The notes under the pieces are model-generated. The model was not told the origin of the DNA and made no database searches. It saw nothing but the letters and a program-made list of their open reading frames with translations. DNA of 64,000 bases, taken from the NCBI RefSeq assembly GCF_058153355.1, contig NZ_CM177019.1; one strand, 5' to 3'. Shown in pieces: positions 54,086 through 54,230 of this stretch. How positions within the stretch are numbered: position 1 is the first letter of the stretch; the number at the start of each line of letters is the position of its first letter. The translations under genes and the position numbers were made by a program.

Positions 54086-54131
54086 CACTGTGTTTTTATA
54101 CAGTATTATTTTTAACTGTATGGATAAACAG
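54086..54131 (-). promoter_or_regulatory. Two tandem LexA (SOS) boxes upstream of the dinI-like gene
   Basis: CTGtgtttttataCAG (54088-54103) and CTGtatggataaaCAG (54116-54131), both CTG-N10-CAG. Confidence 0.5.
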
Positions 54132-54149
54132 TGTCAAGAGTGAGGGAAA

Positions 54150-54230
54150 GTGATTTTTTGGGGCATGCATGGGGCAAAAATATTTGTTGTGGGGCATTTT
54201 GGGGCATGATTGGGACACTTTGTTACATAT
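54150..54230. repeat. Iterated TGGGGCA/TGGGACA motifs near attR, candidate integrase arm-type sites
   Basis: tggggcatgcatggggcaaaa...gtggggcattttggggcatgattgggaca; similar tgggaca pair at 15689-15715 next to int. Confidence 0.35.

Follow-up and report, generated by a model that had tools for sequence, protein, structure and literature searches.

A dinI-like gene with tandem LexA boxes adjoins predicted integrase arm-type sites at the right end of a lambdoid prophage in yecE

LexA-controlled dinI genes of prophages are already known, and the closest described ones belong to the Gifsy prophages. The dinI homologues of Gifsy-1, -2 and -3 are regulated by LexA, with dinI heading a dinI-antirepressor-irsA operon (Lemire et al. 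2011, PMC3121763); they are induced by DNA damage and are listed with one LexA box (Merida-Floriano et al. 2021, PMC8072944). Here we describe a dinI-like gene in the right-hand end of a lambdoid prophage, in a stretch of 64,000 nt from contig NZ_CM177019.1 (NCBI RefSeq assembly GCF_058153355.1) to which, at its full length, we refer as the window. As in the Gifsy prophages, a DinI-family gene stands directly behind a predicted LexA operator that overlaps a sigma-70-type promoter, and by analogy damage induction would be expected. The Gifsy gene has one operator and is located after the replication genes, whereas the gene of the window has two strong predicted operators and lies beside attR; the Gifsy gene heads an operon with the antirepressor and irsA, whereas the module of the window comprises a single gene. 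We regard it as a tandem-operator, single-gene variant of an otherwise ordinary arrangement. Directly next to it is a cluster of TGGGRCA (R is A or G) repeats, and our reading, to which we give a probability of roughly 80%, is that two independent phage modules meet at about position 54140, namely an SOS-controlled dinI-like module and a split attP that carries arm-type sites of the integrase (Int).

For the second module the nearest description is that of the IntBPP-1 subgroup of tyrosine recombinases, which comprises the integrases, called putative, of BPP-1, Stx2a phages and Gifsy-2, and whose arm-binding domain is annotated as DUF3596/PF12167 (Smyshlyaev et al. 2021, PMC8138268). The window-type integrase has the same domain, under the name Arm-DNA-bind_2. 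Published arm-type sites of 933W, IntR or DUF3596 integrases were not found in the literature, subscription-only journals being outside the scope of the search. The best-known arm-type sites are those of lambda, with the motif C/AAGTCACTAT and an inverted P2 site. The att region of the window resembles lambda attP in its short repeated arm sites that are unlike the core, in a 7-bp crossover flanked by imperfect inverted core-type sites, and in the small N-terminal arm-binding domain of the integrase; candidate IHF sites, consensus matches of a kind frequent in AT-rich DNA, are found between arms and core. It differs in the motif, TGGGRCA, and in the arm-domain family, which is Arm-DNA-bind_2 and not lambda's Pfam family. 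The window type has 2 predicted arm sites in P' and 2-6 in P, lambda 3 and 2. Its copies all point the same way, in contrast to lambda with its inverted P2, and its P' sites, unlike those of lambda attP, fall within the coding part of int.

An earlier note on this DNA had pointed to two CTG-N10-CAG boxes just upstream of the dinI-like gene and suggested SOS control, with LexA matrix scoring set beforehand as a check. The boxes are located at 54088-54103 (CTGTGTTTTTATACAG) and 54116-54131 (CTGTATGGATAAACAGTG core). The bare pattern is common, with 29 matches in the 64-kb window against 15.6 expected, and 20-mers were therefore scored with a LexA matrix, symmetrised, 20 nt long and built from 24 E. 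coli operators. The boxes take the two highest scores of the window and both outscore the ruvA (ruvAB) operator (CGCTGGATATCTATCCAGCA, 61088-61107), which ranks third with 19.6 bits and was used as an internal positive control, yet is also one of the 24 operators that build the matrix. The next match reaches 14.1 bits, and in 50 shuffled windows the maximum score had a mean of 12.9 and a largest value of 20.1 bits. Heterology-index-like values of the boxes are 5.25 and 6.15, versus 2.4-12.4 for the 24 matrix operators.

On the minus strand the order is TTGACA, box 2, TTAAAAATAA, box 1, TAGAGGGATTTTT and ATG; the -35 hexamer is perfect and the promoter spacer consists nearly entirely of box 2, while box 1 follows the -10 hexamer and precedes the ribosome-binding site, over the predicted start of transcription. 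The annotation of phage mEp460 marks the same dinI-upstream element as a promoter. The pair thus shows what marks the operator class, that is, an AT-rich-centred CTG-N10-CAG palindrome, a score in the range of known operators and overlap with a promoter. E. coli SOS promoters (those of dinI, lexA, recN and colicin genes) likewise have TACTG(TA)5CAGTA operators over the promoter, and those of lexA, recN and the colicin genes have more than one. The chromosomal dinI of K-12 has a single LexA box, 19 nt from the ATG, in contrast to the tandem pair of the window, and the tandem operators of the lexA gene are spaced by ~21 bp as against 28 bp here. Taken together, the scores and the overlap with the TTGACA promoter of an intact gene support the proposal that the dinI-like gene is under LexA (SOS) control. 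As long as the DNA is undamaged, LexA dimers at the two operators would block RNA polymerase; upon DNA damage, RecA-stimulated self-cleavage of LexA would free the promoter, and the DinI-like protein, as E. coli DinI does, would bind RecA filaments and tune the SOS response.

The product is a protein of the DinI family. It matches E. coli DinI (PDB 1GHH) with E 3.7e-13 and 40-45% similarity, and the acidic C-terminal helix is kept as TWESAD(D/E)WFV (aligned to TWESADDWFV of 1GHH). The gene, its promoter and both boxes travel together with ~100 bp of conserved 3' sequence. The stretch from 53800 to ~54140 is matched in ~100 phage records and in 2,435 of the 5,426 complete E. coli genomes; most matches end at ~54140 and then diverge by integrase type, and the left limit is at ~53721. 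We compared eight prophage dinI promoters, those of the window, PhiR49_2, mEp460, P-EibC, THO-003, YYZ-2008, an ssrA-site prophage and strain UK_Dog. All eight have both boxes, 13 and 41-42 nt away from the ATG, and they are 84-98% identical, diverging directly upstream of the -35 hexamer, where at least four different att/int types adjoin them. Downstream of the dinI-like gene, a Gifsy-type antirepressor or irsA frame is absent from the minus-strand reading frames inspected; the only frames there are one of 84 aa with a TTG start and one of 21 aa with a GTG start, both in a tmRNA-like remnant and neither conserved. The module is therefore one of a single gene with two operators.

It may be asked if both operators are used. 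Control could resemble that of the single-operator chromosomal dinI, with one functional LexA box and the other an operator-like promoter spacer, as the single box of K-12 dinI, the one box listed for the Gifsy homologues and the out-of-phase 28-bp spacing would allow. We find this unlikely, since box 2 outscores the ruvA operator with its 21.3 bits and its CTG-N10-CAG is present in eight of eight promoters, including the two most divergent ones (84-86% identity).

The second half of the locus is made of the TGGGRCA repeats. The earlier note had spoken of "four or five" copies at ~10-bp spacing, placed them at attR and noticed a TGGGACA pair near attL inside the 3' end of int. Five copies are counted, with spacings of 11, 20, 10 and 11 bp and centres at -180, -169, -149, -139 and -128 from the core centre, and the pair in int is confirmed. 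The cluster is thus real; attR itself, however, is not at its end, as the CAGTTAA heptamer lies ~110 bp past position 54230. In total TGGGRCA is not enriched in the window (18 copies versus 19.6 expected), but five copies in 60 nt have an expectation of ~4e-9 over the window, and the largest cluster in 200 shuffles contained two. Translation passes through the two P' copies in different frames, giving YVPM and MSHG, and these are the sole conserved residues of an otherwise variable integrase tail. Because the copies differ in frame, and because they lie outside int in Rac and PHB10, the constraint is on the DNA and not on the peptide.

Comparison of the attP arms of related phages, the second check set beforehand, shows the repeats at fixed distances from the core despite other integration sites (Table 1). 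The six elements, which use five integration sites, agree in motif and spacing; Rac and PHB10 have the variant AGGGGCA(A), with the P' copies just outside int, which ends before them. A scan of IMG/VR anchored on a conserved block (GCTCYTGGRCGWTCTTYRNYRATT) gave 120 loci, of which 106 were unique, had at least 140 nt upstream and were analysed. In these P arms [AT]GGG[AG]CA occurs at -92 to -95 from the block in 101 of 106 and at -81 to -84 in 92 of 106, with further discrete offsets at -102 to -105, -113 to -115, -124 to -126 and -135 to -136; the offsets are 10-11 bp apart and only three occurrences fall elsewhere. Grouped by their variable 75-nt spacer, the arms form 10 genuine types with at least seven core-proximal sequences, and the proximal motif pair is present in all 10, while two accidental matches of the block pattern in coding DNA have the motif in neither. 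Two CTG-N10-CAG boxes are found upstream in about a quarter of these arms, so the dinI module is a frequent but not obligatory neighbour. A search of IMG/VR with the integrase protein returned only integrated copies of 95-100% identity, all flanked by yecE and none with an intact attP.

Among 16,384 7-mers, with one mismatch allowed, the TGGGNCA neighbourhood alone is found two or more times in each arm of the window, VT2-Sakai, YYZ-2008 and Gifsy-2, the four elements enumerated; one-mismatch 7-mers were used since an exact 6-mer comparison of the arms misses the window motif owing to its A/G position. With a matrix made from the sites of other phages alone, three P-arm sites take ranks 1-3 of the window.

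The intact homologue of the window integrase (PhiR49_2 and 80 IMG/VR copies) has 437 aa with Arm-DNA-bind_2 and Phage_integrase domains. Arm-DNA-bind_2 covers residues 7-70 (Pfam E 1e-23), which is a separate N-terminal arm-binding domain, and AlphaFold models residues 1-80 as three strands and one helix, with a predicted local distance difference test (pLDDT) value of 87.5; Foldseek gave no significant match for this domain in the PDB. Members of the TGGGRCA group share 74-81% identity in the N-domain; with Rac and PHB10, the elements of the variant motif, the value is 40-44%. Positional conservation, occurrence in both arms and the Arm-DNA-bind_2 domain bear out the earlier suggestion of plausible integrase arm-type sites, and we consider this prediction well supported. 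The second module would then be a split attP, 54141-54345 plus 15619-15707, in which the N-terminal domain of the integrase would bind the five P-arm and two P'-arm copies, its catalytic and core-binding domains would act on the imperfect inverted repeats around CAGTTAA, and bending proteins would let one integrase molecule bridge arm and core, as in lambda.

It is quite unlikely, in our view, that the repeats are instead sites of the DUF1233-family excisionase (Xis). Like the Xis sites of lambda, which are head-to-tail repeats with 10-11 bp phasing in the P arm, they are arranged head to tail at 10-11 bp. Homology links the excisionases of the phages compared, with divergence in the two elements whose motif is altered, Rac and PHB10. 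Directionality factors, however, are normally restricted to one arm, and the motif pair is present in the P' arm of every element examined. For Xis there is another candidate, the conserved block from -47 to -24, and TGGGNCA is the only word common to both arms, so that an integrase with an arm domain would otherwise be left without a candidate site. Still less can be said for the repeats being upstream activator or repressor sites of the dinI-like promoter, which is very improbable: proximity would favour it (the -35 hexamer ends at 54137, and 21 bp further upstream, at 54159, the repeats begin), but the same promoter is found without repeats, beside other integrase types, in mEp460, the ssrA-type prophage and UK_Dog, the repeats are kept without an adjacent dinI in VT2-Sakai, Rac and PHB10, and their distance is fixed to the core and not to the promoter. 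By this distribution the TGGGRCA repeats belong to the att/int module, not to the dinI module.

Several points weigh against the reading of two meeting modules, and they concern both halves. The sequences of the 24 LexA operators in the matrix come from the literature and not from a curated file. The box centres are 28 bp apart, a distance that does not correspond to whole helical turns, and therefore cooperative binding of LexA is not implied. Since the excisionases are homologous too, Int and Xis are inseparable by family co-variation. The IHF-like sites are consensus matches, which are frequent in AT-rich DNA.

IHF-like matches, again by consensus in AT-rich DNA only, are found at -61 to -72 in five of five elements and at +21 to +29 in four of five, and may be sites of bending proteins. 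The block at -47 to -24 is common to VT2-Sakai, YYZ-2008, Gifsy-2 and the 10 IMG/VR P-arm types, which have different cores, and is missing from Rac and PHB10; an excisionase or a host factor may bind there.

Table 1. Features of the locus in the window, and predicted arm-type sites in related elements (the latter given as distances from the core centre)
Feature or element	Position in the window	Strand	Details
Predicted LexA box 1 (CACTGTGTTTTTATACAGTA)	54086..54105		23.0 bits; rank 1 in the window; between the -10 hexamer and the ATG, 13 nt from the latter
Predicted LexA box 2 (AACTGTATGGATAAACAGTG)	54114..54133		21.3 bits; rank 2 in the window; 41 nt from the ATG; fills the promoter spacer
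Predicted sigma-70-type promoter	54108..54137	-	-35 TTGACA 54137-54132; spacer 17-18 nt; -10 TAAAAA/AAAAAT 54114-54108; 10/12 matches in the scan
dinI-like gene	53824..54072	-	82 aa, intact; Pfam DinI PF06183, E 1.1e-19, 63/63 profile positions
Portable dinI module	53721..54140	-	gene, ~100 bp of conserved 3' sequence, promoter and both LexA boxes
Five predicted Int arm-type sites, P arm	54159..54217	+	TGGGGCA at 54159, 54170, 54190, 54200; TGGGACA at 54211
Two predicted Int arm-type sites, P' arm	15690..15707	+	TGGGACA at 15690, 15701; centres +71, +82; inside the int coding tail
IHF-consensus match AATCAAAGCGTTG (WATCAANNNNTTR)	54264..54276	-	no mismatch; centred at -72
IHF-like match AATCAGTGAGTTA	15645..15657	-	1 mismatch; centred at +29; overlaps the int stop codon
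Conserved block GCTCTTGGGCGTTCTTTAGTGATT	54295..54318	+	-47 to -24 from the core centre
attR core	54328..54357	+	P-side core-type site CCCGTATCACG, heptamer CAGTTAA 54339-54345, then yecE sequence; from three-way alignment
attL core	15610..15634	+	yecE side, heptamer CAGTTAA 15619-15625, then phage-side core-type site CATGACGGG
Integrase gene, frameshifted	15644..16952	-	5-bp deletion near 16425; two overlapping frames; stop codon 15644-15646
Excisionase gene (DUF1233 family)	17008..17244	-	78 aa; Pfam PF06806, E 1e-32
VT2-Sakai (wrbA)			Int 68% to PhiR49_2 Int; 2 copies in int 3' end, 4 in P arm; -170, -159, -139, -128; +71, +82
YYZ-2008			Int 73% to PhiR49_2 Int; 2 copies in int 3' end, 3 in P arm; -150, -139, -128; +67, +78
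Stx2_499			Int 76% to PhiR49_2 Int; 2 copies in int 3' end
Gifsy-2 (Salmonella)			Int 64% to PhiR49_2 Int; 2 copies in int 3' end, 2 in P arm; about -138, -127; about +66, +77
Rac (ttcA)			Int 44% to PhiR49_2 Int; 2 P' copies, 3-4 in P arm, variant motif; -154, -135, -124; +63, +74
PHB10 (ttcA)			Int 44% to PhiR49_2 Int; 2 P' copies, 3-4 in P arm, variant motif; -162, -150, -131; +66, +77

The window is an E. coli/Shigella-type chromosome segment, as identified from its reading frames and the annotation of matching E. coli records. The prophage, of ~38.7 kb, interrupts yecE; on its left are cmoB, cmoA, yecN and the 3' part of yecE (12.7-15.6 kb), and on its right yecD (54427-54993), aspS, nudB, ruvC and ruvAB. 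Three-way alignment of attL, attR and the empty yecE site of E. coli N3 shows a 7-bp identity, CAGTTAA, at both junctions, flanked on the phage side by the imperfect inverted repeats CCCGTATCACG and CATGACGGG. Both termini of the PhiR49_2 record (PV340570.1) coincide exactly with this core, and the two prophage ends match it at 94-97% identity. The int gene of the window is a pseudogene, and the arm sites therefore probably stay unused, except where an intact integrase with that specificity is provided. As both att sites are intact and int is frameshifted, the prophage is probably locked in place with its effector gene ipaH (51472-53223), whose product has NEL and LRR_TTSS domains.

The right end of Gifsy-2 (NC_010393.1, 45300-45840) shows the same neighbourhood as the window. 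It contains an unannotated MsgA/DinI-like frame (positions 38-304, minus strand), preceded by one LexA-type box (CTGTTTGTATATACAG, ~246-262) and TTGACA and adjoining the P-arm sites.

Some observations concern the DNA on the other side of the dinI-like gene. The ~100 bp past its stop codon (53717-53823) show 93-97% conservation across many lambdoid phages, HK97 among them, and fold on the minus strand as two stem-loops (z -2.8), without a U tract; a related stretch adjoins the Rac P arm (positions 1230-1270 of the Rac-end sequence). A scan of 53000-54600 against Rfam gave only a sub-threshold match to CssrB (53682-53754, 23.8 bits versus a gathering score of 76), and we rejected a known RNA family for this region. 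Between ipaH and the dinI-like gene, 53560-53725 has ~80% identity to the 'tmRNA pseudogene / attP' region of phage LLS. It looks like the remnant of an ssrA-type attachment arm, which suggests that the ipaH segment may have come from another phage. Cargo at this place is variable: in E. coli THO-003 (positions 1-1283 of the stretch compared) a yecE-type attR has a frameshifted dinI-like gene beside one protein with a reverse-transcriptase domain and one with a SLATT domain, probably a retron-type defence system in the position that ipaH has in the window. Upstream of ipaH, GTATCGTTTTTTTACA at 53420-53435 (minus strand) resembles the MxiE box, by which the ipaH genes of Shigella are controlled.

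With its presence in almost half of the complete E. coli genomes, the tandem-operator dinI variant is widely spread. The predicted arm sites provide a testable recognition motif and a site map for a large, medically relevant integrase family, which mobilises Shiga-toxin phages, Gifsy-2, Rac and the ipaH-carrying Shigella-type prophage. Such a map could help in automatic delimitation of attP, in prediction of excision competence and in the design of integration vectors. A more far-reaching idea, which we find doubtful, is that one arm code, TGGGRCA at -139/-128 and ~+71/+82, is shared by the integrases of at least seven chromosomal sites, those of 933W/Sakai-type Shiga-toxin phages and Gifsy-2 among them, and permits cross-binding in co-resident prophages. 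If this is true, each integrase could bind the arms of its neighbours, and the resulting competition or mixed assemblies would couple or block the excision of co-resident prophages; even the locked ipaH prophage with its broken int would still soak up the integrases of its neighbours or respond to them. The site map also raises the question of interference between co-resident prophages via shared arm sites.
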